Source: an uncultured Hyphomicrobiales bacterium
GTDB lineage: Bacteria > Bacteroidota > Ignavibacteria > Kapaibacteriales > UBA7675
Assembly: GCA_964445695.1 (NCBI GenBank)
Contig: CAYULF010000028.1
Coordinates: 7,103-71,102 of the forward strand
DNA: 64,000 nt
Reading direction: 5' to 3'
Positions 16,867 to 37,500 of the stretch are shown piece after piece. The position numbers were made by a program, and so were the translations under genes. The notes below the pieces were generated by a model. The model was not told the origin of the DNA, searched no databases, and saw only the letters and a list, made by a program, of their open reading frames with translations. Each line of letters opens with the position of its first letter. Position 1 is the first letter of the stretch.

Positions 16867-17212
16867 GTACTTGCCGCAATAAATGTAATACGTTCCGTGG
16901 GTTGGCCGCGTAGCCGTCGGCGCTATCTATCAACGCCATGAAGTCGGCGTAGCCGTCAAATTTCCTGAGCTGCGAATGAACTTGCGGGCGCTTACCTTCG
17001 GACCGGCTGGGCAGCCCGGTGTTGCAAAGGGGTAAGTAAAAGGATTGGATGTTTACGCGCCTCTGACTCGGCAAAAATAACACAACAGAGGCAGCCTGCA
17101 AATTATCCGACTTTCAAAATACACCAGGCAAAAATCGACGAAATTTCGCCGAGAACATAAGATACTCGCCCTGAGATGAGAGTCAACAGACGAATTCGGT
17201 ACCAGCCGGGTC

Positions 17213-18697
17213 TCACTCAATAAGGGTGATTGCAACGCGGCGGTTACGTTTCCGACCTTCTTCTGTAATGTTGTTGGCGATCGGAGAACGTGCGCCAAGA
17301 CCAGAGCGGTAGAGTCGATTCGGGTTGATACCTTTTCGTTGAAGGTAATTGTAAACGTGGTTCGCACGCAACTCAGACACCCGCTGCGTTTCTTCGGGCG
17401 TTCCAAAGTTGTCCGTGTACCCTGCAATTTGAACTTCAACCGAAGGATTCTGATTCAAGAAATTGACCACGGCATCAAGGTAGTCATAGGATTCCCCTGT
17501 CAGGTCGGTGCTGAGTGCACCGCCATCAACTCCGAGAATGAATTCTTCATTGAGTCCGGCTAGCTGGATCGCAGGACGCCGCGGACGCGGAGTTCTCACC
17601 TCTGCACTGGCGACGGTAGGCGGCTCGACTGTCACCGAGTCTATGATCGGCGCTTCCGGAACAGGCCGTTGAATGATGTCCAAAGCTGCAACGGCGATCC
17701 TTTCACTCGGCTGAATGGACGGGATTTCATAGTCAAAGCGGTTGGTCAGGGTTGCCAGGTAAACCGTCGGTTCCAGATAGGTTGGGTCATAGCGCCGCAG
17801 AATCCGCGTTTCGCTGTTGAGTGCGACCTTCAGTTCCAATCCAAGTCGCATAAAGCCCAGGTTTAGATCGGAGTTGAGGTTGTTCGTCACTTCCGTGCCG
17901 TAATGCAGGCTGAGAAACGGAGCAAAACGGACCCGCGCACTTTGTGCCACTTCCAGCATCAGCACTTCGTAGGCGGCGCCCACTTGTATCCCCATGCGAA
18001 AACCGTGAACGTCCAATTGGACCGCACGGCGCTCGCGGATCAACGCTGTTGAGTCAACCGTCGGAACAACCACGGCTTCCGATCCGGTATTGAGCTCAAA
18101 ATCAAGTCCGCCAAAAACGTACAGCCCACCTACCACGTCCATTCGGGCAGATGGCGAGATTGTCAGATAATTAAATCGCGTCTCTCCTTCGTACTCAGCC
18201 AGCACGGATTGATTCTCCAGCGATTCAAAAGCTCCGTCGCGGACGTCAAACAGCGCAACATGTAGCCTCAGGCCCCAGCCCCACTCGGGTGGATTCCACT
18301 CTGCCATCCCACCGATGAAATATCCAAGCGAGGATCCGGAACCGAAATGTCGCCCGAGATTGCGAAGTTGCGCAGAGCGACTTAGCGCCAGATTCAGATC
18401 GCCGAGATAGGTGCCGAGGTTAGGACCGCCGAACACACCAAACCAGAAGTCGCCATAGCCGGAAGTTATTATCAAAGTGTCTTTGTTGTCGAGTACATCC
18501 ATGCGCGTGGCTGCGCCCACCAGTTGACGATCGGTGCTGACGTCATCAACTGAAAACTCCAGATCAGGCTGATCGTCGGCGGACGAAGATTCCGGGCCGT
18601 CGTTTTGCACTGCGAGCAGATGCAGGGGCAAACCTGCAAACAGGCACACAAGCAACAACAATTCTGGAATTCGACGCCGGACCATCGCGAAACACAC
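17213..18697 (-). CDS. OmpA-family outer-membrane protein (N-terminal beta-barrel, Pro-rich linker, C-terminal peptidoglycan-binding OmpA_C domain)
   Basis: Signal peptide; alternating aromatic beta-strands (FWFGVFGG, GYFIGGMAEW, MGIQVGAAYE); C-terminal IAGYTDN.G...N/S..LSELRA..V..YL...G...GLGARSPIANN..EEGRKRNRRV. Confidence 0.9.
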   Translation of the reverse strand: MCFAMVRRRIPELLLLVCLFAGLPLHLLAVQNDGPESSSADDQPDLEFSVDDVSTDRQLVGAATRMDVLDNKDTLIITSGYGDFWFGVFGGPNLGTYLGDLNLALSRSAQLRNLGRHFGSGSSLGYFIGGMAEWNPPEWGWGLRLHVALFDVRDGAFESLENQSVLAEYEGETRFNYLTISPSARMDVVGGLYVFGGLDFELNTGSEAVVVPTVDSTALIRERRAVQLDVHGFRMGIQVGAAYEVLMLEVAQSARVRFAPFLSLHYGTEVTNNLNSDLNLGFMRLGLELKVALNSETRILRRYDPTYLEPTVYLATLTNRFDYEIPSIQPSERIAVAALDIIQRPVPEAPIIDSVTVEPPTVASAEVRTPRPRRPAIQLAGLNEEFILGVDGGALSTDLTGESYDYLDAVVNFLNQNPSVEVQIAGYTDNFGTPEETQRVSELRANHVYNYLQRKGINPNRLYRSGLGARSPIANNITEEGRKRNRRVAITLIE

Positions 18698-20002
18698 TTA
18701 TCTGATTAGTTGAAGTTTGACGTCGGCCGTTGAAATCAAAACGGCCGGATCATCAACCGGGTATGCGGTGAACCGCACATTATATAGCCCTTGCGAGCTG
18801 AGACGCGCCGCCTCGAATCTGATCTCATAACGCCCGATCGGAGTAATCTGGCGGTCGATCAGCGTTTCAACTTCACGTCCATTGAAATCGTAAACTTTTG
18901 CCGTCAAAATTACGCGGTCGTCGACAGCATACTGAATAGTCGTCTGACGAGAAAATGGATTTGGATTTGCCTGTGCGGAACTGATGACCGAGCTCGGAAC
19001 GTACACACGCGTTTCGGCCAGATAAACCAGGCTGCCGTCAAAGTGATGATAGTACAGTCTATAAACGTACTCTTCTTCACGAAATTCAACCGTATCGCGT
19101 GTCGAGTAGTCAAGAGGCGTCAGACTCAGGCCGGGACTGTTCAGATCGGCGCGACGACAGTCCGGATCTTCAGCCGGATAAAGTTCATGGCAGGCAATCG
19201 TGTCAACAAAATCCAGTTCATCCCCCAGCTGTCCAATCGGCCTGATGCCACGCACGATAACAAAACCACGATTGGCATATTCGGATTCGGTTCGCCAGAA
19301 CAGTCTCACCTTGCGATCGCCCAGATACTCGCCATAGAAATCTACCAGCAGGAAAGGGGGCAAATCGATGTCGCGAACCTCATAGGAGGTGGCATAATCC
19401 CCGACAAGCATCGCGACGTTATCATCGGAAAAGAAAAAAGGCGCACGGTCATCAAAAATCTTGAACGCCGTGGCCTGAAATTTTGTCAGCGGCTGCACCC
19501 AGTCCATGCTGAGCGGCAGAAAGCCCGGCTCGGGAATAGAAACCCGAAAGCGACCAACCCGAATACTGTCATCAACAGCAACCGGAATACAATCGCCGAA
19601 ATTGCGGGGTCCCAGAACGCCGATACTCATGCGTCCCGGGAAGGTATTGTGAATGATTTCGTATTGGGCGGCAGGCAAATCGGAGAATCCCGGGAGCAAT
19701 TCCACTGAACATTCTTCCATTGCGATGCCGGGAAATTCCAGTTGGAATGTTCCATTTGCCCACATGAGCCATTCGTTGTCCGAGATATTTAGTACCCAGA
19801 CATCCAGGTCTACCGCATTGGGTTTGGGCTGCGCCACCAACACGGCGGAAACATGAGCAATCGTGTCCTGCTCATTTTGTGCAGAAGCCCTTTCTGGCAG
19901 TACAAGACATAGGACTGCGCAGGCAAGCGCCAGCAGAACCGCGTGCCGGCGGATTAGTACCGGCAGAAGTCGATGAAATTTGTGTGGGCGGGTTGTCTTC
20001 AT
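18698..20002 (-). CDS. Secreted protein (~434 aa): putative cohesin-like beta-sandwich + PVEL-type Ig module + T9SS type-A CTD
   Basis: Start re-set to MKTTRPHK at 20002 because the longer ORF overlaps the upstream gene. Signal peptide ends PERASA-Q. LLVDFYGE...VRLFWRTESEYANRGF module; ANPNPFSRQTTIQY...KVYDFNGREVETL...GRYEIRFEA...GLYNVRF CTD. The cohesin-like assignment is inference. Confidence 0.85.
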   Translation of the reverse strand: MKTTRPHKFHRLLPVLIRRHAVLLALACAVLCLVLPERASAQNEQDTIAHVSAVLVAQPKPNAVDLDVWVLNISDNEWLMWANGTFQLEFPGIAMEECSVELLPGFSDLPAAQYEIIHNTFPGRMSIGVLGPRNFGDCIPVAVDDSIRVGRFRVSIPEPGFLPLSMDWVQPLTKFQATAFKIFDDRAPFFFSDDNVAMLVGDYATSYEVRDIDLPPFLLVDFYGEYLGDRKVRLFWRTESEYANRGFVIVRGIRPIGQLGDELDFVDTIACHELYPAEDPDCRRADLNSPGLSLTPLDYSTRDTVEFREEEYVYRLYYHHFDGSLVYLAETRVYVPSSVISSAQANPNPFSRQTTIQYAVDDRVILTAKVYDFNGREVETLIDRQITPIGRYEIRFEAARLSSQGLYNVRFTAYPVDDPAVLISTADVKLQLIR

Positions 20003-20021
20003 ATCAGGCCATGCTCCCGGA

Positions 20022-22115
20022 TTATCGCGCAAAGGATTCCTTTTCGCGGTTGTTCCAGGAAACATTCGCATCTCGCGTTGTCACTATGCCGTTCATGTCG
20101 GTGTCGGGGTTGATATATCCCTCCGCATCGTGATTTAGCCAGGTTGCCGTAGCCGAAGAATCATAGTCTCTATCGTCAATCAAACCGTCGCCATTGGTAT
20201 CACCGCCGATCATAGCGTAATATTGACGTCCGGTTTCACTTTCATCAACAAGGTTGACGGCGTTGCTGCCGCCCAGCAGCAAAGCTGCACGCGTAAAATC
20301 AAAAGTGTGAATTTCCGGCGTCAGCATCTGTTGGTCCCGCGTTACCACGGCAAGGTGATTGCGATGGTGGACAACGATGTAGTAAGTGCCGGAATCGATC
20401 TTGATCTGAGTCTGGCCGTCACGATAGTCGACGATATTGCCGTCCCATGTGATCAGGCCGGTGCGGAAGCGGGATTCTCCGCCGCTCAACAACGTGCGGA
20501 ACTCCACCACGACCCAGTCAACAATTTCTTTGCGGCGGTCACCCAATTCTCCCATGGCAATAAACTGCCGGTTGGGATCGAGGCTGTAGGGATACATTGC
20601 CGGAGGAGAATCCGGCAGGAAGCCGCCTTCAGACAGATCCGCAGCCATACGACCATTGCGGTACGGACCTTCCATGAGAATGCGAATGTCGACAAGTGCA
20701 TTGGGCAGCAGTTCACCAATGCCGACTGCATAAAAACCGGAGCGTTGCAGATTTGCTACGCTGCCTTTGGCCCAGTTTCCGTCTATCTCAATTGTCTCAC
20801 GTGGTTCGGCCACGTTTTGCCAGGCATCAACGGTACTGTACTGCAGCTGAACATCAAAGGTGTCCAGACCGTTTAACTCATCCGTTTGATCCAGACGAAA
20901 CGCATAACCGAATTCGGCGTTAAAACCATCCTGCACAATTTCGCCGCCTTCATCTTCTGCCGTTACGGTAATGGATCGGAGAACTTTGTCTTCCGTGTCT
21001 ACCGTCAGCGGCAACGGGATAGTATCGGGCAACACTCGCACCGTCATGGCAGTCATTCCACCAAGACTTTGCTCATCGTCAAAAGCGGCATAGGTGTGTT
21101 TGTTGTTAAACACATTTTGCACTCCGCCCGCAGCCAGTCTCGTCCGCCGCACTGAACCGCGGACCTCAACATCGTCATTTCCGAATTCGGGATTTTCGAT
21201 GCTCGCATGTGTCAACACATGCTGTTCCTGACCAGGATCCGTATCGACATTGCTGCCAAGATATAATGTGTCGTTGACCGTCACGGACTGATTGAGAACC
21301 AATCCTTCCGTGGTTTCAAGCCGCAGATTCTGCAGCGTGTTGTCATCCACCGGAAGTTCCGCTCCGGAGAACATCTTCCCATCACCGATGTAGGTGACGG
21401 AAACATTTTCGCCAAACAGCGGAGCTTCGGCCAATTCGGATGCAACACTTCTTACTATCAACGCCGAGTCGCCAAGAGTAAAGTTGTTCGCCACATCGTT
21501 GCGGAACATACCGCGCAACAATTCCAGCCGACGGTTAACACTGAATCCACCACCGTTAACAACATCAGAACCAGCAGCATTGTCAAGTGCAAGAACTTTG
21601 AAACTTCCGCTGCCGTCAATCGCCTGTGCCTGAGTACCCTGCATCACAACTCGACCGTGCAGGAAATCGCGATTAATTATACCGTTGTGTTTAACACGAC
21701 CATGAGTTACAACTTCAGCGCCTTCACGCATGACGATTTGCACTTCACCTGAGGCGGTAACAAATGTGTCGAGCGTTACGATGGTATCAAGTGCTTCAAG
21801 TCGTTTAAGTCCACGGCCACTGAATTCGAGATTCTGGTAAACTATCTGGGGAACAAACTGCGATTGCGATTGGTCGTCGCCGTCATAAATAACGTGGCCG
21901 TCGATGGTGTCTTGTTGAAACGATGCCGCGGCACTGATGAAGAGACTGCCGGGATTGGTAATTCTTCCCTGGCTGCTTTCCGCTACGCTCGTTTCAATCT
22001 TGCCTGCGTTGTAAATCTGACCGGCATTCTTCATGGATCCACCTGTCCTGCCGAGCGCGATACCGGGCAGGATTGCTGAAAGGAGAACCGTCAATATGAG
22101 AATGCGCTGTTTCAC
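20022..22115 (-). CDS. Secreted beta-solenoid-type protein (~697 aa) with C-terminal EGPY...HRNHL module ending in dockerin-like duplicated Ca-binding loops
   Basis: Probable GTG start (VKQRILILTVLLSAILPGIALG signal). Shares the EVRGSVRR..FNN..V.P..KVLRSITV block with 22321-24603. The C-terminus has GDTNGDGLIDDRD and PDTDMNGIVTTRD. Confidence 0.88.
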   Translation of the reverse strand: MKQRILILTVLLSAILPGIALGRTGGSMKNAGQIYNAGKIETSVAESSQGRITNPGSLFISAAASFQQDTIDGHVIYDGDDQSQSQFVPQIVYQNLEFSGRGLKRLEALDTIVTLDTFVTASGEVQIVMREGAEVVTHGRVKHNGIINRDFLHGRVVMQGTQAQAIDGSGSFKVLALDNAAGSDVVNGGGFSVNRRLELLRGMFRNDVANNFTLGDSALIVRSVASELAEAPLFGENVSVTYIGDGKMFSGAELPVDDNTLQNLRLETTEGLVLNQSVTVNDTLYLGSNVDTDPGQEQHVLTHASIENPEFGNDDVEVRGSVRRTRLAAGGVQNVFNNKHTYAAFDDEQSLGGMTAMTVRVLPDTIPLPLTVDTEDKVLRSITVTAEDEGGEIVQDGFNAEFGYAFRLDQTDELNGLDTFDVQLQYSTVDAWQNVAEPRETIEIDGNWAKGSVANLQRSGFYAVGIGELLPNALVDIRILMEGPYRNGRMAADLSEGGFLPDSPPAMYPYSLDPNRQFIAMGELGDRRKEIVDWVVVEFRTLLSGGESRFRTGLITWDGNIVDYRDGQTQIKIDSGTYYIVVHHRNHLAVVTRDQQMLTPEIHTFDFTRAALLLGGSNAVNLVDESETGRQYYAMIGGDTNGDGLIDDRDYDSSATATWLNHDAEGYINPDTDMNGIVTTRDANVSWNNREKESFAR

Positions 22116-22265: not shown

Positions 22266-22320
22266 GAATCATGCTGTCTTTCCTGTCAAATCACAGAACC
22301 CATGGACGGATTCAAACTGA

Positions 22321-24603
22321 TTAGTCACAAACGCGGAGCGTACCGCCGTTGGCGATATAACCGGTGTTGTCGATCGAGTTGGCCTGGAAGTGACCAAGGT
22401 TGCTGCCGATATTACCGAAGTTGATGAAACCGGGGTAATCGATGGCATCGCCTTGCGTCGTCGTCAAAACTGCTTCCGTCGGAGCCGTCGTTGCGCCGAG
22501 ACCCGAAGCGTTCGTCAGCAGACCACCGGTGGCAAGCTGCCACGCAACCGTACCGTCCGTCTCATCGGCGGCGCCTGCGGCGTCATAACCGATAAGCAGA
22601 CCACCACCATCTTCGACCGTCACGTTGACTGCCAGAGCGTCGTCACGCGTGTTGTCGCCGCCCTGCGAATAACCCTCTTCAATCTGACCACCGATCGGGC
22701 CGGCAATCAGACCGTCAATACCGTCACGACGATAACCGACGTGAACCGTAAAGCCGTTGGGGATGATGACGTTGTCATACTCGTGCGGTTCCAGACCCTC
22801 GTCCCAGGTGCCCGGGTTCGACCAGCGACCGTCGGCAATAGCGTAGAAGGTCGTCGGTCCGCCACGCAGCAGCAGGTCGTTGGTTGCGTAGAATTCGCTG
22901 ATGGCGTTGCCCGGCATGGCAACCGCCGTAGCGTCGATACCTGCCAATTGCACATAGCGGAGCTGGTTGGCATTGTCGCGCGAAGGCGCATTACCCGTAG
23001 CAACTTTCTGCTCGTTCGTACCGTCGGCCTCGAAAAAGCGAAGCTGGTCTTCCGTCGTAACCGGCGAAGCACCACCCCAGCCGGCGCCCTGCTCGCCATC
23101 CTGCCAACCGGCGCGAATGGTAGCAGTCCAGGTGTCGTCGTCGAAGTCAAGCGTAATTTTACGATTTACGTCCGTCGAGGCGTCGTAGTTGTTCGGCGCG
23201 GTACCAGGCTGAACATTCATCTCGAAGTAGCCTGTGTACGGGTTGTTCGTGAACGTTACTTGCGATTCGGCGTTGTTGAATGTGTAAGGACCGGCGACAC
23301 CAGCGTCAACCGAACGACGCATGGCGCCTACAACTTCGGTATAGTTCGTGGCATCGTAATCGGCCGTTGCGTTGGGGTCCGTCATGAACAGCGTATTGGC
23401 GCCCATGTCCAGGTTGCCGCCTGCACCATCGGTAACACCGACGTCCAGGTTGTTGCTCATGTAAACATCGCCGCCGGCATCTTTCACACCGTTATCCGTG
23501 CTCAGGTTGCCATAGGGATTGGAAGCGACCGTCTGCATAACAACCTGGTTAGCCGCACCGCTGAACACAACCGTCGAAGCATCGTCGAAGTTGGCGTTCA
23601 CACCGGCGGCGTGGTTATTCGTCAGGCTGCCCGTCACAACCACGGTAGCGTTTTGCTCCAGATTGATCGTCGCGGTAGCCAGGTTGGCAAGCGTCATCGT
23701 GCCGGAGACCGTCACGTCGCCTGTACCGTCGCGGACAAAGAAATCACCATCGTTAACGTCGACGGTATTCGAAAATTCATTGGTCGCACCGGCGCCGGCA
23801 ATGTCAAGCAGACCGCCGTTGTCGATGGTAACCGTACCGGCAAATGTACCGTTGCCCGTTCCGGTCGTAAACTGACCGTCGGAGGCGCCGCCACCCGTGG
23901 CGTCGACCAACAGAGGCGCCGCGGCGTCCTGCGTAACTTCGTCGCCGACCGTCAGGCTACCGAGAACTTCAAAGCCGCCTGTGTTGCTGGCCAGCATAAC
24001 GAGATCGCCGTCGATCGTCGTTTCGTCGCCTGCTTGCAGCGTTTTGGTACCGGCCTCGCCCAACTGAAGATTGTTGTAGCGGTTTGTGCCGGCTGCCACG
24101 CCGACCTCAGCAAAGATGTTCTGTGCGAGCGAACCATCGTACGTGAACGTTCCGTTGTACGTACGGTTCGCGCCGCCGGCTGTGTAAACTTCGCTGACAA
24201 AAATTCCATCGGAGATGGTCTTCAGCGAGGCATCTTCAACCGTCAGGTTCTCGTAGTAGCGCCCCTGAACAGTTTGTGTACCGGCCGCTGCGGTCCAGAT
24301 CACTTCGTAAGGAATGCGCGTTCCGGCGGTTTCACCGGGCGTCAGTGCATCCACGAATACGCCGTTCTGGTCGGTGAAACGGTTGTCAATGCCTTCAAAG
24401 GTCACAGTACCGTCACCATTGAGTGCGGCGCCGGCGCCACCGCTCTGAAATTCACCGGCAGTCGTACAAAACACAATGTCGCCGATATTGTTTATCGTAC
24501 CGCCGTCATTGTTCAGATTCTGCGCAACAGCACCTGCTCCGGCGACCACGAGACCACAGGAGGTCGCAAGGGCAAGGCGCTTCAATTTGTGCTTAATCCG
24601 CAT
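22321..24603 (-). CDS. Secreted acidic Gly/Asn/Thr-rich beta-solenoid-type protein (760 aa), strongly codon-optimised; candidate major filament subunit
   Basis: Signal peptide MRIKHKLKRLALATSCGLVVAGAGAVA-Q. One FYAIADGRWSNPGTW..P..DNVII motif shared with the giant protein. Only two Cys in the mature chain. No T9SS CTD. Confidence 0.9.
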   Translation of the reverse strand: MRIKHKLKRLALATSCGLVVAGAGAVAQNLNNDGGTINNIGDIVFCTTAGEFQSGGAGAALNGDGTVTFEGIDNRFTDQNGVFVDALTPGETAGTRIPYEVIWTAAAGTQTVQGRYYENLTVEDASLKTISDGIFVSEVYTAGGANRTYNGTFTYDGSLAQNIFAEVGVAAGTNRYNNLQLGEAGTKTLQAGDETTIDGDLVMLASNTGGFEVLGSLTVGDEVTQDAAAPLLVDATGGGASDGQFTTGTGNGTFAGTVTIDNGGLLDIAGAGATNEFSNTVDVNDGDFFVRDGTGDVTVSGTMTLANLATATINLEQNATVVVTGSLTNNHAAGVNANFDDASTVVFSGAANQVVMQTVASNPYGNLSTDNGVKDAGGDVYMSNNLDVGVTDGAGGNLDMGANTLFMTDPNATADYDATNYTEVVGAMRRSVDAGVAGPYTFNNAESQVTFTNNPYTGYFEMNVQPGTAPNNYDASTDVNRKITLDFDDDTWTATIRAGWQDGEQGAGWGGASPVTTEDQLRFFEADGTNEQKVATGNAPSRDNANQLRYVQLAGIDATAVAMPGNAISEFYATNDLLLRGGPTTFYAIADGRWSNPGTWDEGLEPHEYDNVIIPNGFTVHVGYRRDGIDGLIAGPIGGQIEEGYSQGGDNTRDDALAVNVTVEDGGGLLIGYDAAGAADETDGTVAWQLATGGLLTNASGLGATTAPTEAVLTTTQGDAIDYPGFINFGNIGSNLGHFQANSIDNTGYIANGGTLRVCD

Positions 24604-24763
24604 GTTGATTTGTCCTTGATTGATGAAGGAATACAGCATGAATTGATTGAATTATGTGTTGTAATGTTTTTCGAGAGAACTGATTCTGTGCCAGAAAAGC
24701 GCTGGAATACGACGAGATGCCCAGGCTGTACTACAAACATAGCCCAGAAGCAAGCTTCAGTTC

Positions 24764-25561: not shown

Positions 25562-28500
25562 TTATGAGCCGATCTTCAATCGACCCTCATTGAGTATCGT
25601 CGCGTCATTGCTGACTGCTCCGAATACTTCAAAAGCATTGACGCCGGGTAAAATATGCAATATTGCGCCGTTCTGCACACGTAAATCTCCACGGGCGCGA
25701 ACGGGCAGGGTCACGGTCTTGGTGCCGCTAAGGTTGATATCGACGTTGCCGTAGCCGTCCAGCCCATTGGGCGGAGCTGTGACGATCTGATTGATACCGT
25801 AATACTCGACCGTGTTTTGAATGTCTATCCGGTAGTTTGCAAATCCAGGCAAGGCAGTTGAAAAGTCGGCCGAACCACCAATCCTGAGCAGGGTATTGCT
25901 CGTCATAACGGCTTCCCCACCGCCCGCATTACCTACTCCGAAAGTCACCGCATCCAACACGCCGGAAATCAGTCTCATAGCCTCGGACACGGTCAAGTCG
26001 CGATCGAGCGTCACAACGTTGTTACCGGTCGCTCCACTGTTTTCGACCGTGAAACTCGCCATCGTGGCAGGCAGGCCGTCGCCCAACACCTGATTGGTTG
26101 TTCCACTATATACATAGCTCGCTTCCGTTGAAAACAGCCTGTTTGCGGTCCGAACATTGCCGCTGCTGACCGGCGATGCCACAATTCCCTGCGGAGACCC
26201 GATTCGGAGAGTCGCTCCCGTCGTGGTTTGAAACCACTCGCCGGAGATTGACCGGTCGGCCAGATCTAACGTTCCGGTATTTGACAGTGATGTTCCGACA
26301 GTCATACCGCCAATCGTGCGATCCGTGTCCAGTAAAACGACGTGGTCGCCTGTCCCGGCGGTCCCGCCTCCGATTACGATGCTGTCCTGCGGATTGTCGG
26401 GGAAAATTCCCGGGCCAACCGGCGCGCCTAGGTGCGATGGATCAAATGTCCACGTAGAACCAATATTCCACAATCCGGACGCCAGACTATAGAATATTCG
26501 CCTGAAAGCACCGACATCGCCGAGGGTCCAGTCTCCCTCAAACTCAGATGCCGCCAAGGCGGCCGGCGAAGTAAAGATGTTGCCTCCGGAGTTAAGTGTT
26601 GCACCCGACATCAGACGCCATGAACCACTGCCGCCTTCATCAACCGGATTCCAGCGGGCGATCGTGGCAAAATTGCTTTCGTCGCCTGTTATGTCATCAA
26701 CACCGTCGAGGTAATGAAACGTCCACTGACCGGACACACCGGTGCTTACGTCGCCTATTGCCCAATAACGCCGGATATAATCGCTCGCTCCGCCGCTCAG
26801 ATGCAAGTGGCCGCCGTCCGCTTTCTGACCCGGCGATACTCGAACACCAACAGAGCCATCGGCTCCTGCAACAGCAGCGGCAAACTCCGCAGGAGTGTAT
26901 TTATCCGCGCCGCCGTCAAAAGATCCAAGGGGGAACAGATAGTTGCCTCCGGAGGCCGTCACGGCTCGATGCAGTCGTCCGCTCAGCAGGCTCGTACGCA
27001 CGTATCGATATGGCGCGGCGCTTGTCCCCGCGTCGACAATTGCGCCAACAGCCGAAGACTGAACCGTAAGATTTGCACTGCTTCCAAGTTCGACCACCTG
27101 CTGATTTGAATTGGCGCCTTCACGCAGGTCGAGTATGCCGGCTACGCTGACGTCGTGACCAAGGTGAACGACGCCGCTACCCGCGGCGCGATTCATGGTC
27201 ATGTGCTGCAATGCCGTCACACCCGCGCCGGTAACGTTCTGATCGTCCGAGCCGCCGCCCTGGAAGGTCATGACCGCATCAGGAGCGGCTGCAGCGCTTC
27301 TCAGTTCGGTGAAATCAATGCGTCCGTCGTTCAACACGTCCGCCTGAATTCTGAGGTTACCGGCCGCCGCCAGCGGATGCAGCACAGCGCTTGTACTGCC
27401 GACCGCCAGATTCCAGATTGCACCGTTACTCACTTCTATATCAAATTCCTGGGCTGCGGCCGATAGAGCGTCTCCGAACTGAATCGTTCCGCCGGTTACG
27501 TTGACCGTGGACGCCAAAATATTGACATCCGCCGGGCGACCGACGGCGCTGCTCATATTTGCATTGCGCACCAAAAGCTTTCCGGCAGCCATGGCAAACG
27601 AAGAGCCGGGAGCGCGCAGATCAAATGAACCGAGCGTGGCGTTGTCATGACCGACAGTTGCAACATTAACCTGTCCGCCGGCCTGATAGTAGTCGAGCAA
27701 ATAGGTATCGACGGCTACTTCGGGACTGATGCGTCCTGCGACCGTCATCGTTCCGTTTAACACACTGATCCGGCTGCCGGCAGTATTGGTGTAGCGCAAG
27801 GAATTCCCGTCAAAATTTCCAATCACAACCGCTCCGCTGCTGTTAAGCAGCAGCTCGCCGCCATCGATCACCTGGGATGCACCGGAGCCGTCCTGCCCCA
27901 TGACATATGAACCAGATCCAGTTATGTGCAACGCCCCTGTTGCCGCAATTGTCTGAGTTCGAGATTGTCCAACGCCGTCGTCCATCGTCAACGTGCCGGC
28001 ACGCTGCTCCCAGGTGCCGTTAATAAAATTGATGGCGTCGCCGCTGCCGATTCGGCTGACACCCAGGTCGACAGAACTGACGACCGGCGTTGCCGGTGCA
28101 CCTTTGTCAAGCGTAACGCCATGCAGACGCACCGCCCCTACGCCGCTCAGGTTCTGAGTTGCCGTTGAGCTGAAGATCGTTTCGGCTTTGAAATTGGAAT
28201 TGTTCGGCACGGGACGCATCAACCATTCGCCGTCAATGTTAACATCGCCGCGCAGAGACAGGCTGTGTGTCCTTGGACCTGTGCCGCTCGTTTCTACCTC
28301 AAATGCCGCTCCGCCGGCAACTGAAAGACGACCGTTAACAAGAAGGGCCTGGTCAGCCGGAGAGCCAAACGCATCATTGTTGTCAAACACCAGTCGACCG
28401 GTTTGAACAGTCAGGTCGCCGCTCATGTCAATCCCGTCGCGATTGAGCATGACATTGCGTGTATTGTTGTCCGTGTCCACAAGAATGTCATTAACAGCAA

Positions 28501-31500
28501 GGGGAAACGCGCCGCCAAAAAACTGATCCAGTGAACCGCTGAAGACGTAATCTGCACGCGGCTCGAACACTCGCACGGCATCGCTGAATCGCCAGACGCC
28601 TGCGCTAGTGCCGGATTCGATACCCACAGCCGCAGCAATGTTAACAACCGCATCATCGCGTACGATCGATGCGCTGGTGCCGTAGGGACTTTCCGTCAGG
28701 AATGAACCCGCGCCGATGCGCAAAACCCCGTTGCTTGTTAACTCGAGATAGGCAATCTCCGGCTGCGTGTTTAACAATATTTCGTGGCCACCGCCAATAA
28801 TCACGCTGTCGCGCACCTCGTACTCTTGTCCGGGCGCGAGCTGCCAGTCGTGATTCGGGTATACCCCGGCAGGCACCGCTGCGCCGGCAAATCCGGTAAA
28901 TGACCAGGATGTTGAGTTATTCCAATCGCCGTCGCTGCGGCTATAGAAAATGCGTTGCGCACGCTCACCTATATAAAACTCGCCCAGGCCGGGCCAGGGA
29001 GTCGCTCCGACGGACAGTCGTACGTTGGCCGCACCAACATTCCACTCCAGATTCCGCCGATCCGACCACTCCGGCGTTTCAAGCGGAATACTGCGACGGC
29101 GGATAATGCTGTTAGTGGTTGTAAGGGATGCGAGCTCAGCCGCCGGGAAGCCAAGTGTGAGGTTGGCGGTGCGGCTGCCCAGCGCAAAGGTCGTTGCACC
29201 CGTTACGCTCCAATATCTGTCGATTTTGGCGGCAGCGTCGAGGCGGTTGCCGATCCATTCTTCATCGGGAACCGGCGTATACGAGATGACGTCAACCGAT
29301 CCGGCCACACCGCCGCCACCGGCCGCCAACTGTACCTCAACCGGCGTGTAATCGTCCAGATTGCCTACTTCAAAGACAATGTTGTCGGCCCCCGCGCCGG
29401 CAGGTTTGCGCATCTTTCCGTCAACGTGTCCCGCGTTGTTAACACGCAGTACATTGCCGGGAACCTGCACTTCCACATAGCGGTCTGCATCGCGGACGCG
29501 GATGTTGCCGGAGGAACTGAACGTCAAAGTGTTAATGACATGTACATGCGCCGTCGAGGAAGCCACATAGTCGGATTTAACCAGCAGATCCTCACCTTCA
29601 ATGCTGATGTCGTAGAAGTCAACGCCGCCGTGGTTGTCCAGGCGCAAATCACGGTCAATCTGACCGCGGAACGCAACTGATGCATCCAGCGGATCAAAAA
29701 GTCCATTATTGCGCAGTATCATGTCGCCGTACAGGTGCAGGCTGCGGCGTCCGCAGTTAAATGTTCCGTGCTCAATGAGCAAAGTGTCGCGAACGCCGAC
29801 GGGGTTTGCGCCGGTCGGCAAGGACAGGAACACGGAATTAAACGGCGTCGAGTTGTTGTCTACAATGATGGCTGCAACACTGTCCGGAAGTGCATCGCCG
29901 GTATTCTGGCTGCCGGCAGTACTGTTAAACACGTAGCGGCCCACCCCAAAAATACGGGTGTCGGTCTGTATTGCACCGCGGTCGCCAAGGGGAGCGATTC
30001 CCTGCAGGTGATGCATGCCAAGCGTACAGGAATCCTGGAGTTCAAAACTCAGCCCGCGCACGGTGCCCAGGTCGCCTTCAATGTACAGTTCGCCGGGCAG
30101 ATTGTTAAACACCTCCACTAGAACAGAGCGAATAGTGGGTGTGATAATTGAACCGGGAAGACTGACGCGTTTGCCGTTGCCGATCCGCACAATGTCCGTC
30201 GACTGATCCGGAATGCGCGGTGCGACCGCCCCCGTGTAACCTGTTATCGACCATGTTGTGGGGTCGGTCCAGTCGCCGTTCTGACGACTATAGAAGGTCG
30301 TGCTGTTTAACTCCGCCAGCAGGAAATCGCCGAATTCCGTGTTGCCGGAAGAGCGCATCGTGGTGTCGGTGCGCGTCGGCGTTGAAAGCGTCGCCCAACT
30401 TCCGCCGGATGGGCACAGTGCCGGAAGGTCCGGGCAGGCAGGCGTGTAGCGATGCTGCTCAAAAAAGAGCAATTCTGGACTGTTGCGCAGATCGTCGGGA
30501 TTGATAAACTGCAGCGTTAAACGGAAGGTACGCGAAGCTCCCAGGTCAAACGCCCCGGCAGTTGTAACATTCCAGTAGCGTTGAATATTGTTGTCGAGTT
30601 TAACATTTGCCGTGGAGATGTGCGGGTGATTGCTGCCGTTGGCCATCACGCCCACCAGACCGGCGGTTCCCCCGCTGCCCTGCGTTTCAAACACCGCCGG
30701 TGTATAAGCACTCAGGGAAGCGGATGTGCCGACCGCAAAGTCGACTATTCTGGCGCCGGCGTCGACCCAACGATAGAGCCGACCATCAACGTGCCCCTGG
30801 CCGTTGCGAATCAATTGCAGCGTACTGCTGGTAGTCGGGGAATGCTCAACATAACGTGCATTGCTGCGAGCATCAATGAGGGCCTGGTTTCCGACGGCAA
30901 ACTCCAGCGTGTTGTGCACGATCAGATTGGAGTTGGCGCCGCTGCCAAGAATAAGATTTCCACCGGATTTGGACAGCCGCAAATTGTAAGTTTGCAATCC
31001 ACCGGCATCGTCATTGTAGATCGTTTGGTCGGAACTTCCGTTCAACACCAGCAGGCGGGCGTCCGACGGATCTGAACCGCTGACCGCATCAAACAATCCG
31101 TAGTTAACAATATCGCCGCCCACTTCCAGCGTATTGCCGTACAGTTGCAGACGGTGCGCGTTGTCGACTTCGACTCCGTTACTGATGACAAATGTTTCTT
31201 CCGTGACCCGTGTTTTGACTCCGCCGGAGACAGCATGCAGCGAATAGATCGGCATGGAACCGGCAAGTTTGATAATACCGGTATTTGTAAACGTTGAATC
31301 TCCCGTCTGAATCAATCCGCCCGTCATACCGCTTCCGCTGCCCGCATCGACGCGGAAGTCCGCCGACGCGCCGCTGGTTCCATTGGCGACAATAATGCGA
31401 CCGCCACCCATGCTGAACGACGAGCCGGAATTAACCATATCAAAGCCAATCCTGGACGCATCGCTGTTGCCTTGCCGCAGTACGCGCGTAGTTCCACCGG

Positions 31501-34500
31501 AAGACTGTTCGTACTGCACCGTCGAACCGGCGTTAAATCGGCCAAAAATGCCCGCAACATCAAATTCACCGTCTTCTACTCGGACAATTGTGCCCGCGCG
31601 ATACAGAAAGTGTTCGTTTAACCCGTCGCCGACGCGCAGATCGCCGCCACGCAGTCGTATCCGTGTGGCTGCGTTGGAAATCAGGCTGCCGGAGCTCTTG
31701 ATTTCCCCATCCTGAATATCAAATGCAGTGTTCGGCGACATGGTAACTGAAACGTTGCCATATGAGAGGCCCAACGTTCCGCTGGTGGCATGGCGCAGCA
31801 CCCCGGCAAGCGGTCTGAACAAATAATTCGATGCACGGCCGGTCGCTTCGGAAAAGGTCGCCGACAGGTTTATGAGTGTATCTGCCAGGCCGTTGGATTT
31901 CTGCATTCTGACGCGTGCAACATCGCCCCAGACGCCGTCTCCGCTGAGCGTGTTGTTGCCTCCGCCGGAAAAACGCAAAACCGTATTGTTGGTCGGACTG
32001 TTGTTTAAGTAGACGCCCGCACTTGAACCGGACTGTGCAACGTTGCGCATGTTGCCCGTGATTGTCAGTGTGTCGTAACGCGCGCCGGAGTTGTCGCCGT
32101 CGATAATGCCATCGTACTCAACATCCAGATTGCGACTGACAACCAGATGTTTCAGTCCCGGCGTGGCACCGAATCGGACAATTCCACGGCCCAGAGCCTC
32201 CGTGCCGTTAAACGGGCCACCGATGCGCAACGAGTCGACCATGACTGAATCGAGGTCCATCGTGATAATGTGACCATCGACCATTACGGTATCGTTGCTG
32301 TACAATTCAAATGGATAGTAGGAAGCCGAAATACCGGCATGCCCGATGTTGGACCAATTTTCAGGATTGCTCCAGTCGCCCGTCTGCCGGCTGTAGAAAA
32401 TCCGGCCGGTAAAAAAGACGAGTTTGCCGCCGGCGCTCCAGTCGCCATCGACAAATGGCGCATCGGTAGCCACCACCGGCGAAGGCGTGGCTTTGGGGTT
32501 GTCGCCGACGTTGATTTCCCACTCGCCGGTACCGCGGTAAAACGCGGGCAAATAACTCGAGACGTCGCCTGTAATGTCAACATCTTCGTACCCAAACTGC
32601 AGGGAGTTTGAGACGATGGCTGAAATATCGCTTGTCGTCACCGTCCAGAATTTTTTCAGCATGTCATCCTGCAAACGCTGAGGATGCAATCCATCGCGCA
32701 GTCTGACGCCGATCGTCGGCAAAGCACCGTAAGTTCCTGTGATGCTGAGATCGGCCGGATTGTACACCGTGTCAATACCTATCGGGAACAGGAACGACTT
32801 CGCGCCGGCCGCCGTACTAAACTGTTTAATGATGATGCCCGCGCTGGTAGACCCGTCGCTGCGGAACATCCGTGTTTTGCTGAAAACTCCGGCACCGGGA
32901 CTCAGAGTCGCCGCAGGCTCAAACGTCAATTCAATATCGTTTCCAAGGAGAACAAGGTTGTCCTCGTCGAACGTCATTGTGCCGCCGATGGTGGCACTGG
33001 TGGCAAACTCAAGGGTGTTTTCGTCTTTGTTCAGGCTGAAATCGTTAAAACTTGTCGCTGCGCTGCCGCGAATTTCCTGCTGTTTAAATCCAACACAGGT
33101 CACCTCTCCCGTTCCGGTGTTGAGCGCGGCAGTGGAATTGTTGTTAACCCAGTCACCGCCGAGGTCGATATCATTGCTGCCGATTTCAAATGTACCGCGC
33201 GTTAACACAAGCGAGTCGGCCACGTCAATATTCTTGCCGAGTTGAATCGTGCCCGGGTTTGTCCGCTGTGCGTCGACTTCAAAAGCCCACAAGATGTCCG
33301 GCAGTCCGTTGCCCGTCTGCTGGGTCACCTGAATTGCGTCATTAACAATCAGCACCGTATAGTCTTCCACTTCGCCGGTACTGCCGTTGCAGGGCCCTGA
33401 CGTGTTGGTTCCTTCGCGCATCTGTACGCGCATCCGTGCAACGCCAGGTAAGGTTCCGCCTGGAATTGTGAAGTCAGGCGAGGTCTGCTGACCGGACCCT
33501 GTGAAATCGACCATCCGCTCAGACGAGTTGTCGTCAAACGACCCATCGCGGTCAAAATCGATCCATACACGCCAGCGTTTGGTGCTGCCCGTGCTTGGAT
33601 TAAATATCATGTCGTACTGCTGCCCGGCTGTCATGGTAATGACGCTGTCGGCATAGTAAAACAAGCCGTTGCCGAAGTTGTTCGTCGAATTATCAAAAAT
33701 CGTGGCAGTGCTGTTGTCGCGCACGCGCACGCGCGAAATCCAGTGTGTATTTGAATTCCAACCGGGTCGACAATAGCTGAAGTCACCGCCGACCGACGCA
33801 TTGTATCCCTCAGCGGTATAAACAATGTTCATGCTGTCGAGGAACGCACGCGTATATGTCAACACATTGCCGTTCCCGGTAAATCCACTGCGGATACCAT
33901 CCTGCGATCCAACTCCAAGCGTACCTCCCTTTTCCACCGTCAGCGCCGCTCCACGCAATTCAAACGGTCCAAGCATCAGCGTGCCGGTTTTCTTGACCGT
34001 CACATTGGGCCCATAAAAGGCATTCTCGGTTGCACCGCCGCCGTACAGCCATGATGTACCAATGTTACAGTCCATCGAGACTGTGTGGTTGGCGGCTATG
34101 AATACTACGTCATACTGGGTATTCGGGTGGCGCGAAGCCGGTGCGCCGTTGTGGTCGACGGTCGACCAAGTGTTAACATCGCACCAGTCGCCGTCCGTGC
34201 GGCTGTAGAACGTCGTGATCGCAATCGAATTCTGGTTGCCTATGACAAAGTCGCCCAGCAAGGTCGAGCCGTCCGTCAAAACCTGTGTCGATCCCAACAG
34301 GGTGTCGACCGGGAAGTCGTTGGCGACGATAGTACTGGCGCTACCGTCGTAGTCAATATTGCCGAGTGTTAAACGCGTATCGCCGCAGCCGAAGCCGGCC
34401 GCATAGTTCGCGGCGGCTGTATTGGGACGCAGAGACTGCCAGCCCTCGGTCGCGCCGCGGTGAATACCGATTTCACTACAGGCGATCGCATCGATAAGGC

Positions 34501-37500
34501 CGGCATCCGCCGGATCGAGAATCTGGCATGTCACGGTCACCGTGCGATTGCCGCGAACAAAAGTTGAATTCTGCGGGGTCGTGACACGCCAGAAGCGAGG
34601 AACATACCGGTTGGGATCAATCGGCGTGTTAAAATGGTTCAGCGCCGTGTGCCGCCCAGGATTGTTGCGAACACCAACCAGGCCCGCCGTCCCGCCCGAA
34701 CCTTCCAATCTGAACGTAAACGGCACGTAATTTTCATCCTGCCCAACGTGAAACAAAACCGTCTGGGTGCCGGTACCAACGCTCATCTGCAGGTTGCCGT
34801 CCACGTGACCAATCCCCGCGCGCACCACACTGCCGGGTACTATTACATTGCAGTCCGTATTGCTGCGCGCGTCGATGTACGCCTGGTTCCCCGTTTCAAA
34901 TCGCAGGCTGCCATTGACGGTTAGCGCGGAGTTTGTTCCGAGTGTAAGCAGCCCCGTATTGATCGCTTTGTCCACTGTCAGGTTAAACAGCGAGAGATTG
35001 GACGCCGAAGCAATGATGCTCTGACCGGTGCTGCCGTTAAACGTCACCGTAGAAGTCTGTGGCGTGATCGAAGCATTGGTTGTTGCGCGCAGATCCCCCT
35101 GCAGGTTCAACGCCGCTCCAAGCACCAGTTCACCACTCTCAATGCGGCAGGTGTCAGTGACATTAACGCTGTTGTCCAGCGTGACATCCGCGGCATTTTT
35201 CTGAATGATCAGGCGTGCCACGGTGCCGGGCAGTCCGTCGCCGGTGATTTGTGAGGCCAATGCACCGGTGTAAACAAATGTCCCACGATTGTGCGATGCC
35301 GGATTGTAATTGCGCACCGAGGTCTGGATCGACCCGGAAGCCGCCGCGGCGCGCAATCCACCAACGTTGCCGCACATCAGCATCGACTCTACGTCCATAC
35401 TGAACGTACCTGTGCCGGTCACCACATTGATGTCCGCATTAAACACGCCGGATGAGTCGATTGTCAGTTCCCCATTAACGGTCGCCGCGGCGTCGAGACG
35501 AATGGTTTTGCTGTCGCCAATGTAAATGCGTGCATTGGCTGTGGGCACGATGGACGCGGGAGCGCCGCCATATCCCTGCGTAGACCAGGAGGCCGGATTT
35601 GTCCAATCCCCGTTGTCGACAAGACTGTAAAAACTGTATGCATCGGGCTCGCCAATTGTCAGCGTGCCGAACTCGGTAAGTCCTTCAAATGCAATGGTCG
35701 TCGCCGTGCGCAGCCCCTGGGCCGGATTCTCAAATCGATTCGGCAATATCCAGGACGTTCCATTCCAGAGGCGTGATTCGTAGAGGAGCGGGTCGGCACC
35801 ATTGCGCGCATCGCCGGCCAGGAAGTTAAGTTCAGCGGTGTAACTGCGATCTGCGCCAAGACTAAACGATCCGCCGGACGGCACGGAAATACGCCACTGA
35901 CGCCGTACGTGACGCGAATCGTTTAACAAACTGCCCGCCGGAGCAACACCGGTGCTCACGGGCGAAGATGATGCGATTACAGTGTCCGATCGAATGCCCA
36001 CCACTCCGGCACTTCCACCAGTCCCGTCAACAGCGAGTATTACAGGCGTATAAGCGGCGGCATAACCGACTTCGTACTCTATCGATTGCGGCCCTGTTGC
36101 AACAGTTTTCCGCAATTCTCCGACGACGTGACCGGGAGCGCCGCCGCCACGCACAATTGATCCCTTAGTCCAGATGTGACGCTCGCCGACGTCGATATTT
36201 CCGCCTGTAAGGATAAGGCTGTTTTCAATTGTCAGTCCATCCGTCGCCGCACCAATAAACCGTGCATCAAGTCCCGCACCGCCGTTGTCGACAGTCAGAT
36301 CGTAAAACTCCTGACCATGTCCGGATACTCGCAGTTTTTGCTGCGCCGCACCGTTAAATACAACCTGTGAATTGCCGGCCGAAAACGTCCCACCCGTATT
36401 GATCCAGTCCCCTGCCAGGCTCAGCGTTGAACTGGTCATGTTCAGCGTTGCCGATGTGCCCATCAACAGGTCATTGTCAATTGCCATATCGTCCAGCGGC
36501 GTGATTGCACCCAGACCGTCAAACAGAACGGTGTTAAATGCATTGTCCACCGTACTGCGCGATCTGATATTGATGTTCTCACCCAATGATTCGGAGCGAA
36601 ATATAACGGCATTGTTCCCGGCGTCAAAAACGCCACCGCTGTTCTCCCAGTCGCCGCGAACTTCCAGGTCAAAGCCGGCCGACTCAAGCGTTGTATTGGT
36701 CTGAATTTCAAGATTGTTAAGCACGACAAATGTACTGGCGCCGGTGCTGGAGAGCGACTTTACGCCGCTGCCCGACGTTACGAGGTTGTAGTAGTTCAGA
36801 TAAACAAGTGAATCGGCGGGAGCAAGCGGCCGCGTCGGAATCGACTGAGCGCCCGCCGCGTTAAACACTACGGTAGAACCGTCGGTGAGAAAACGCTGCG
36901 AGGCGGCGCCGGCAAATTTCAGTTCGGAAATATCCAGTAAAGCACCGATTCTGATCTGTCCCTGCGGACGCAGGCTGATCGCCGCAGTTGGCCCGCGCTC
37001 TCCGCTGATGGCAAGTTCGTTGTACTGCAACACGGCCGGACTGGAGCCTGAGCTGGGAATTGTCTGGTTACCGGTGCCGCCAAACGTCACACGACCATTG
37101 GTAAATGTGGGAGCGCTGTAGTTGGTCGGAAATGTATTGCGCACCAGGAGCTCGCCGTCGCGCATCTTGAGACTGCGCCCGGAACTGTTGCCGTTGACGG
37201 TGAATGCAGCCAGATCGAGTACGCCGTTTTCTATTACCAGCGAATCGCTGATCGCGATGGACTTGCCTAGCACCAGGGTGTCGCCCACGGCTTTGTCAAC
37301 AATGATTGTCTGCACTGGGCTGGGCAGCCCGTCGCCCGTGGATTGCGGCGAGGCTGTTCCGTTAAATCGATACACGGCTGCTGCGCTCAGATCGCGAATG
37401 GTCGTCTGCACCGCTCCGGACGCTCCAACCAACGCAAAACCTTCGGAATGGGCATTAACAAATTCCGTGTTGTCGGCCAGCCGCAAAGTATCGCCTGTAA

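Follow-up and report, generated by a model that had tools for sequence, protein, structure and literature searches.

Cohesin-dockerin docking is textbook material for Gram-positive cellulosomes, and Bacteroidota are thought to display proteins by means of type IX secretion system (T9SS) sorting domains or as lipoproteins. Two further arrangements bear on the present work: in the glycosidase toxins of Clostridium perfringens, the cohesin-FN3 unit of NagJ/GH84C and the dockerin of NagH form a non-cellulosomal pair, and T9SS cargo with a type-B C-terminal sorting domain (CTD) has a dedicated PorP/SprF-like partner gene. The closest described system is that of the cellulosome of Clostridium (Acetivibrio) thermocellum, which is anchored by means of type II cohesins and an X-dockerin (XDoc): the XDoc of CipA pairs with the cohesins of SdbA, OlpB or Orf2p (PDB 2b59). 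In Chlorobium chlorochromatii, Cag_2037 and Cag_2038 are neighbouring cohesin and dockerin genes, whose binding was inferred from an AlphaFold 3 model and would retain a giant protein on the surface of the cell (bioRxiv 10.64898/2026.03.19.712371), and rumen Bacteroidetes are reported to have proteins with dockerins (PMC6487960). Here we analyse two adjacent genes from a stretch of 64,000 nucleotides, hereafter the window, of an uncultured bacterium of the order Kapaibacteriales (Bacteroidota; assembly GCA_964445695.1, contig CAYULF010000028.1, positions 7,103 to 71,102), which encode secreted proteins of 697 residues (20022..22115, minus strand; open reading frame and translation) and 434 residues (18698..20002, minus strand).

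We consider it probable, at roughly 65%, that these two genes encode a cohesin-dockerin-type binding pair of the non-cellulosomal kind. Such a pair, joined to the T9SS, suggests a cellulosome-style manner of fixing proteins to the surface of a Gram-negative cell. The two genes belong to an operon-like block of four tightly packed minus-strand genes, for proteins of 772, 697, 434 and 494 residues in that order, and the ATG of the 434-residue protein (position 20002) lies 19 nt past the stop of the 697-residue one. A sequence-only reading of the window had proposed that adjacent dockerin-like and cohesin-like modules, outside a cellulosome context, let a CTD-less protein attach to a T9SS-anchored partner. 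The statement about context was correct: glycoside hydrolases play no part here, and the four-gene operon that contains the pair is one for surface proteins.

The locus shares with the C. thermocellum system a beta-sandwich that immediately precedes a dockerin with duplicated Ca loops, the latter at the very C-terminus, and a single cohesin-fold module on a surface-anchoring partner; type II cohesins are among its best structural matches. The anchor differs, SLH repeats on a Gram-positive wall in C. thermocellum being replaced here by a T9SS sorting domain and the outer membrane of a Gram-negative cell. Unlike in the latter, there are no cellulases and no scaffoldin, neither module passes its Pfam model, and similarity of the X domain is non-significant. 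With NagJ and NagH the locus has in common the succession of a cohesin and an FN3 domain and the joining, here putative, of two secreted proteins outside cellulose degradation, whereas the toxins come from a Gram-positive organism, join enzymes and have no surface anchor that depends on processing by a secretion system; the match to NagJ obtained here covers the FN3 region only (E 0.33). Cag_2037/Cag_2038 come from a related lineage and are likewise adjacent genes with a C-terminal dockerin followed by an N-terminal cohesin on the next product. Their modules are recognised by InterPro, export by a type I secretion system was proposed and the cohesin protein is RTX-type cargo, whereas the modules described here are cryptic and the cohesin-fold protein carries a T9SS tail. 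Finally, as for type-B CTDs and PorP/SprF, a cargo gene has, in a near one-to-one relation, its own helper gene downstream, with a link to the T9SS, but the helper would be a soluble, cohesin-fold type-A cargo instead of an outer-membrane barrel, and the tag on the cargo is dockerin-like and not a CTD.

The 697-residue protein starts with a Sec signal peptide and has an N-terminal region (~445 residues) and a C-terminal XDoc module, but no T9SS CTD. Pfam and NCBIfam scans, with the whole protein or with its cut-out modules, gave no family match. The reading frame terminates in ...IGGDTNGDGLIDDRDYDSSATATWLNHDAEGYINPDTDMNGIVTTRDANVSWNNREKESFAR, and the dockerin-like tail, delimited from the sequence and the tail alignment, covers residues 637-697 (20025..20207, minus strand). 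It holds two 12-residue D/N loops whose starts are 32 residues apart, inside the last 59 residues: loop 1, DTNGDGLIDDRD (residues 639-650; 20166-20201, minus strand), precedes a conserved GY linker, and loop 2, DTDMNGIVTTRD (residues 671-682; 20070-20105, minus strand), precedes NVSWNNR. This is the duplicated-loop layout of dockerins, defined by a 12-residue Ca loop with D or N at positions 1, 3, 5, 9 and 12, repeats ~30-35 residues apart and a C-terminal location; loop 1 has D or N at all five positions and loop 2 has T at position 9. The paired Ca-loop motifs announced by the sequence-only reading are thus present as described. Among five orthologues (44-97% identity), D639, D643, G644, D650, D671, D673, N675-D682 and W687-R690 are invariant, and because the loop residues do not vary the motifs are not a product of chance. 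Loop 2 and the segment after it form the best-conserved part of the protein, with a mean column identity of 0.77 versus 0.43 for the N-terminal part, and the stretch NGIVTTRD.N.SWNNR is unchanged in orthologues down to 44% identity.

Hidden Markov models (HMMs) of the C-terminal module and of the tail alone were run on all six-frame reading frames of the window's own genome. The whole-module HMM found the C-termini of two giant proteins, of 3438 residues on contig C2 (E 1.5e-29) and of 3411 residues on contig C5 (E 1e-24), and the tail-only HMM found both of these tails at E 2e-5. The Pfam model Dockerin_1 (PF00404; gathering threshold 22.9 bits) gives 33.7 bits for the C2 tail and 28.1 bits for that on C5, and the two are among the genome's sites above the cut-off. 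Since the module is homologous to these Pfam-positive tails, we describe the tail of the 697-residue protein as a divergent dockerin on a support domain (XDoc), homologous to accepted dockerins by this transitive link of sequence comparisons. Tails aligned across many lineages form one family, with the pattern GD.NGDG.I...D, GY, D.N.DG.V...D....N and often QVP at the end. When the profile of the C-terminal family was searched against PDB sequences, dockerins were the only matches, all of them non-significant (E 0.6-7.5). The proposal that the tail is dockerin-like therefore stands through its homology to the C2 and C5 tails, and fails as far as a Dockerin_1 score for the tail itself is concerned.

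Ahead of the tail lies an X-like beta-sandwich support domain (residues 470-636; 20208..20708, minus strand), delimited by AlphaFold2. In the model of the C-terminal 228 residues it is predicted as all beta (model residues 1-167; pLDDT mostly 85-97), while the tail has pLDDT values below 50 and no secondary structure at model residues 187-228. The motifs DWV.VE.R and HHRNHLA of the support domain are invariant. Type II XDoc chains, including 4u3s_B and 4wi0_B, match it only at E 0.15-0.32 and with TM-scores below 0.4.

The 434-residue protein starts with a Sec-type signal peptide, followed by the beta-rich N-domain that contains the strings VDLDVWVLN, ANGTFQLEF, GRMSIGVL and VGRFRVSI, on which its first description was based. 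The ~150-residue domain expected there was found as one of 171 residues (residues 42-212; 19367..19879, minus strand). Visual inspection spoke against a lipoprotein, as the context of the cysteine in the signal peptide misfits a lipobox and is not conserved. The family counts 144 representatives at 50% clustering, nearly all of 410-465 residues and of the same layout, and a profile search found the N-domain in single copy in the window's genome. Its AlphaFold2 model, built with 26 homologues, has a mean pLDDT of 92.1, a pTM of 0.87 and 11 strand elements, and adopts in prediction the cohesin jelly-roll fold (nine strands, ~140-170 residues). Foldseek against the PDB gave 35 matches at E <= 0.001, mostly type I, II and III cohesins, which also account for ~30 of the 50 best matches; the cohesin matches have E values of 1.4e-4 to 1e-3, TMq of 0.50-0.55 and TMt of 0.50-0.63. 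A structural search that could have returned a non-cohesin fold, such as a carbohydrate-binding module (CBM) or DOMON, was therefore run to an answer: since cohesins are the best structural matches, the domain is best described as a cohesin-type jelly roll. The cohesin-like label holds at the level of the fold, but not at that of sequence, where Pfam gave no support and the N-domain family profile retrieved no cohesin from the PDB at E <= 10, its sole match being the FN3 region of NagJ (2w1n_A; E 0.33, non-significant). The invariant residues are W78, A82, N83, T85, Y114, G131, P132, W168, Q176, K181 and N195, which, going by strand order alone, would be located on strand elements three, five and six and on the third from the end; in cohesins, it is the 8-3-6-5 sheet that binds the dockerin. 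As neither module meets its Pfam definition, we do not file them by sequence as members of the dockerin and cohesin families; both have a distant relationship to cohesin-dockerin pairs and, on our inference, act in the same way.

The sequence-only reading had placed an Ig module and a T9SS CTD after the N-domain. At these positions we located an FN3-like middle domain (~residues 213-335; 18998..19366, minus strand), recognised by its conserved F..Y.GD..V.L.W.T..E...GF motif, and a putative, divergent C-terminal T9SS sorting domain of type A (18701..18997, minus strand), but the match of this tail to Por_Secre_tail is weak and falls below the cut-off. The cut-offs applied to T9SS tails were 27 and 23 bits (PF18962 and TIGR04183, respectively, 27 being that of Por_Secre_tail). 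Within the family, 13 of 29 members match Por_Secre_tail at E <= 0.01, distant relatives score within 31-54 bits, and four relatives (P0193, P0202, P0209 and P0215) end, as judged by eye, in classic tails of the NPNPF...KM.LL. type. The genome encodes the T9SS translocon, as indicated by SprA (TIGR04189; 746.6 bits, a 2330-residue frame on contig C8).

The pairing of the two modules is conserved far beyond the window. Among the genomes sampled from the window's order, the N-domain gene occurs in 16, each time with a gene of the 697-residue family directly upstream of it, and seven genomes have neither. In other families of the class, an XDoc-ended gene stands directly upstream, on the same strand, of an N-domain-like gene in seven genomes (G029, G046, G076, G424, G145, G392 and G370); the proteins of G029 are homologues according to hhalign (E 5.7e-8). 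The upstream cargo scanned in G046, G076 and G392 carries Beta_helix, Exo_endo_phos or CarboxypepD_reg domains and no CTD, and the downstream partners in the same genomes have Por_Secre_tail scores of 24.7-48.8 bits, three of the four being above 27 (35-49 bits) and the fourth at 24.7; two partners in G029 reach only ~20.5 bits. By chance, such an adjacency (within 1 kb, same strand) would be expected at ~0.1-0.5% per locus, given 7-44 XDoc modules per genome of 3.5-4.3 Mb. In addition, an N-domain-like module and a C-terminal XDoc are fused in one protein of 471 residues in G096 and in one of 1797 residues in G029. The logic of the original proposal, in which a T9SS-tailed protein serves a CTD-less one as partner, thus recurs as a conserved gene pair with unrelated cargo in several lineages, and as fusions.

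Co-occurrence was counted in 401 sampled genomes of the phylum, where XDoc is found in 24 of the 25 with an N-domain-like module and in 57 overall (Fisher p 7e-22, or 8e-8 without the window's order). XDoc is also present in 33 sampled genomes with no match to the N-domain profile. At six loci sampled from such genomes, the gene directly downstream of the XDoc gene encodes in every case a protein that has, besides a signal peptide, a beta-rich N-domain and an FN3-like module; five of these genes are complete, with 371-416 residues and Por_Secre_tail scores of 31-54 bits, and the sixth is cut by the contig end. As hhalign did not match the six partners significantly to the alignment of N-domains (probability 8.5%), we call their N-domains cohesin-like by architecture only. 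A locus search with distant N-domain relatives, in genome and metagenome contigs, confirmed no locus.

The N-domain is a movable and repeatable module, and two tandem copies are present in G392. As a separate observation, protein P0215 of the representative library (725 residues) has a scaffoldin-like make-up of three tandem N-domain-like modules, FN3 and a classic T9SS CTD. G096, a 4.3-Mb genome of the same class, encodes at least 44 C-terminal XDoc-like modules on different proteins and one detectable N-domain-like module, a many-to-one ratio that resembles, by analogy, that of cellulosomes. At another locus (L012; G455:C1:162001-172000), XDoc genes, two in number, and CTD genes follow each other in alternation, and the second XDoc gene is followed by an 827-residue BNR/YCF48-like protein (Por_Secre_tail 46.6 bits) and not by a small partner with N-domain and FN3.

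Several results weigh against a cohesin-dockerin-type pair. PF00404 gave no match at E <= 10 with the 697-residue protein, its last 83 or its last 229 residues, the genome-wide PF00404 scan does not list the site of this tail, and 2 of 32 tails of the family match at E <= 1, the best at E 0.46. Likewise, Cohesin PF00963 (gathering threshold 24.1 bits) matched neither the 434-residue protein nor its cut-out N-domain even at E 10, and the genome-wide PF00963 scan does not list the N-domain site. The AlphaFold2 model of the tail does not display the two-helix F-hand fold of a dockerin, and Foldseek of the C-terminal model against the PDB found no significant neighbour for the X-like domain (best E 0.055). 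The CTD of the 434-residue protein scores 16.5 bits with Por_Secre_tail (E 0.011), under the curated cut-off, and the CTD-less partner has no known route across the outer membrane. Adjacency of genes speaks for a functional link and not for contact, and the search of sequencing runs for co-transcription of the pair returned DNA metagenomes only, no RNA; the source habitat is that of aquaculture or biofloc metagenomes. Further points on this side concern the N-domain and lead to a different account of it, namely that it is a CBM of the CBM2/CBM3 superfold which holds the 434-residue protein, or the cell, to a polysaccharide, the XDoc gene being co-regulated and the modules never touching. CBM3 and CBM2 share the jelly-roll superfold and are among the significant Foldseek matches, with rank 1 taken by the CBM3c-bearing CelQ; no sequence model calls the domain a cohesin; and the invariant W78, Y114, W168, Q176, K181 and N195 recall a sugar-binding strip; a face that binds sugars would likewise be compatible with the invariant W, Y, N, Q and K residues of the domain. 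The CBMs, however, have lower TM-scores than the cohesins that dominate the top 50, and a CBM would leave unexplained both the position of the N-domain directly downstream of XDoc genes in many lineages, with unrelated cargo, and the fact that nearly all genomes with the domain also have XDoc. We regard this account as quite unlikely.

It is also conceivable, if improbable, that the XDoc module is self-contained, that is, a Ca-stabilised C-terminal domain that acts as an anchor to surface glycan or lipopolysaccharide or as a new sorting signal, with loops that stabilise the sandwich and a CTD protein that is an accessory without any plugging in. Its constant place at the extreme C-terminus of very diverse proteins, more than 40 in one genome, is indeed that of a sorting tag, most tails are not scored by Pfam, and there are the 33 genomes where XDoc occurs without an N-domain profile match. 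Yet all six loci inspected in such genomes still have the beta-rich and FN3-like downstream gene, the five complete ones with an above-threshold CTD, the tail is not packed on the sandwich in the model, the two paralogous tails on C2 and C5 pass the dockerin model, and both modules are found fused. As for a fortuitous likeness, in which neighbouring genes would encode, by accident, EF-hand-like loops and a beta-sandwich that are both generic, the direct dockerin sequence matches would allow it, all being non-significant (E 0.46 to 7.5), but with loops invariant across orthologues, transitive homology to Pfam-positive dockerins, top structural matches that are specifically cohesins and an adjacency that recurs far beyond chance we find it hardly credible.

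For the cohesin-dockerin-type pair, we propose the following course of events. SprA is encoded in the genome, and the 434-residue protein should therefore leave the cell via the T9SS; after export through SprA, its type-A sorting domain would attach it to the outside of the outer membrane, where it would display the cohesin-fold domain on an FN3 spacer. The dockerin-like tail of the 697-residue protein would plug into this domain, presumably in a Ca-dependent manner and probably by its invariant second repeat, DTDxNGIVTTRDxNVSWNNR. The 697-residue protein would thereby be tied to the cell surface, and so would whatever binds its N-terminal part, possibly the 772-residue protein, while the OmpA-like fourth protein of the block may brace the assembly to peptidoglycan; the roles given to these two proteins derive from their membership of the operon. 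For the crossing of the outer membrane, export of a periplasmic complex on the CTD of the partner is the most economical idea, and one that we hold tentatively, with more doubt than conviction: the XDoc protein would fold in the periplasm, plug into its CTD-bearing partner, leave through SprA on the CTD of the latter and stay anchored at the surface. Were this piggyback export to prove true, the widespread two-gene cassette, with XDoc cargo first and the cohesin-fold-FN3-CTD protein second, would be a third, trans-acting class of T9SS targeting beside type-A and type-B CTDs.

Together, the locus and its relatives point to a cryptic, T9SS-tailed cohesin-fold family that Pfam misses and that is encoded beside CTD-less, X-dockerin-ended proteins. 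Our literature search found no description of T9SS-tailed cohesin-fold proteins paired with XDoc cargo, and no paper that names partners of the dockerin proteins of rumen Bacteroidetes. If the modules bind, the pair would explain how CTD-less XDoc proteins reach the surface or stay on it, and would amount to a modular plug-and-socket layer in T9SS biology; it would also yield annotation rules for hundreds of hypothetical proteins and provide those who display proteins on Gram-negative hosts with an orthogonal docking pair.

Related modules were seen elsewhere in the window's genome. A ~497-residue protein on contig C16 (24218-25966, minus strand) combines an N-terminal beta domain, Dockerin_1 (29.2 bits), a second beta domain and Por_Secre_tail (31.3 bits); as both are above threshold, a dockerin and a T9SS tail do occur in one protein. 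Frames of 771 residues on contig C15 (172-2484, plus strand) and of 1364 residues on contig C4 (84208-88299, minus strand) each start with two tandem N-domain-like modules. The latter two proteins look like small scaffoldins and are possible partners of the XDoc giants on C2 and C5, next to which no adjacent N-domain-like gene was seen when their neighbours were inspected.

The other two genes of the block flank the pair. The first encodes the secreted 772-residue protein, without CTD (open reading frame at 22321..24639, minus strand), and the last encodes the 494-residue protein (17213..18697, minus strand), which has a C-terminal OmpA-type peptidoglycan-binding domain (Pfam OmpA, E 4.7e-18; PDB matches span residues 396-492). 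The start of this OmpA-like gene abuts the stop of the 434-residue protein, and its position is also kept in relatives: two Kapabacteria-type genome assemblies have the gene order 738-709-445-452 (OmpA) residues, with overlapping stops and starts. Where the source names them, homologues are proteins of Kapabacteria, Chlorobi or Bacteroidota metagenome-assembled genomes. Directly past the OmpA-like gene, a consensus scan found a terminator-like hairpin with a T run (17135..17152, minus strand), the probable end of the operon. A weaker terminator-like hairpin, also a consensus match only, lies between the genes for the 772- and 697-residue proteins (22296-22313, minus strand); it could act by attenuation and leave the 772-residue product in excess over the three downstream products.

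BLASTP found no significant similarity between the 697- and 772-residue proteins (E 0.057), a result that gives no support to a common solenoid origin. By eye, the mature N-terminus of the 697-residue protein, MKNAGQIYNAGKIET, looks like both ends of the 772-residue protein, NNDGGTINNIGDIVF and IDNTGYIANGGTLRV, and also like the C-terminus, SNDATILNEGRLKIGS, of a 4820-residue protein encoded at 25562-40024 on the minus strand. These resemblances would fit an end-to-end stacking in gene order, and the succession of the 772-residue, 697-residue, 434-residue and OmpA-like proteins might mirror the order in which a surface fibre is assembled.

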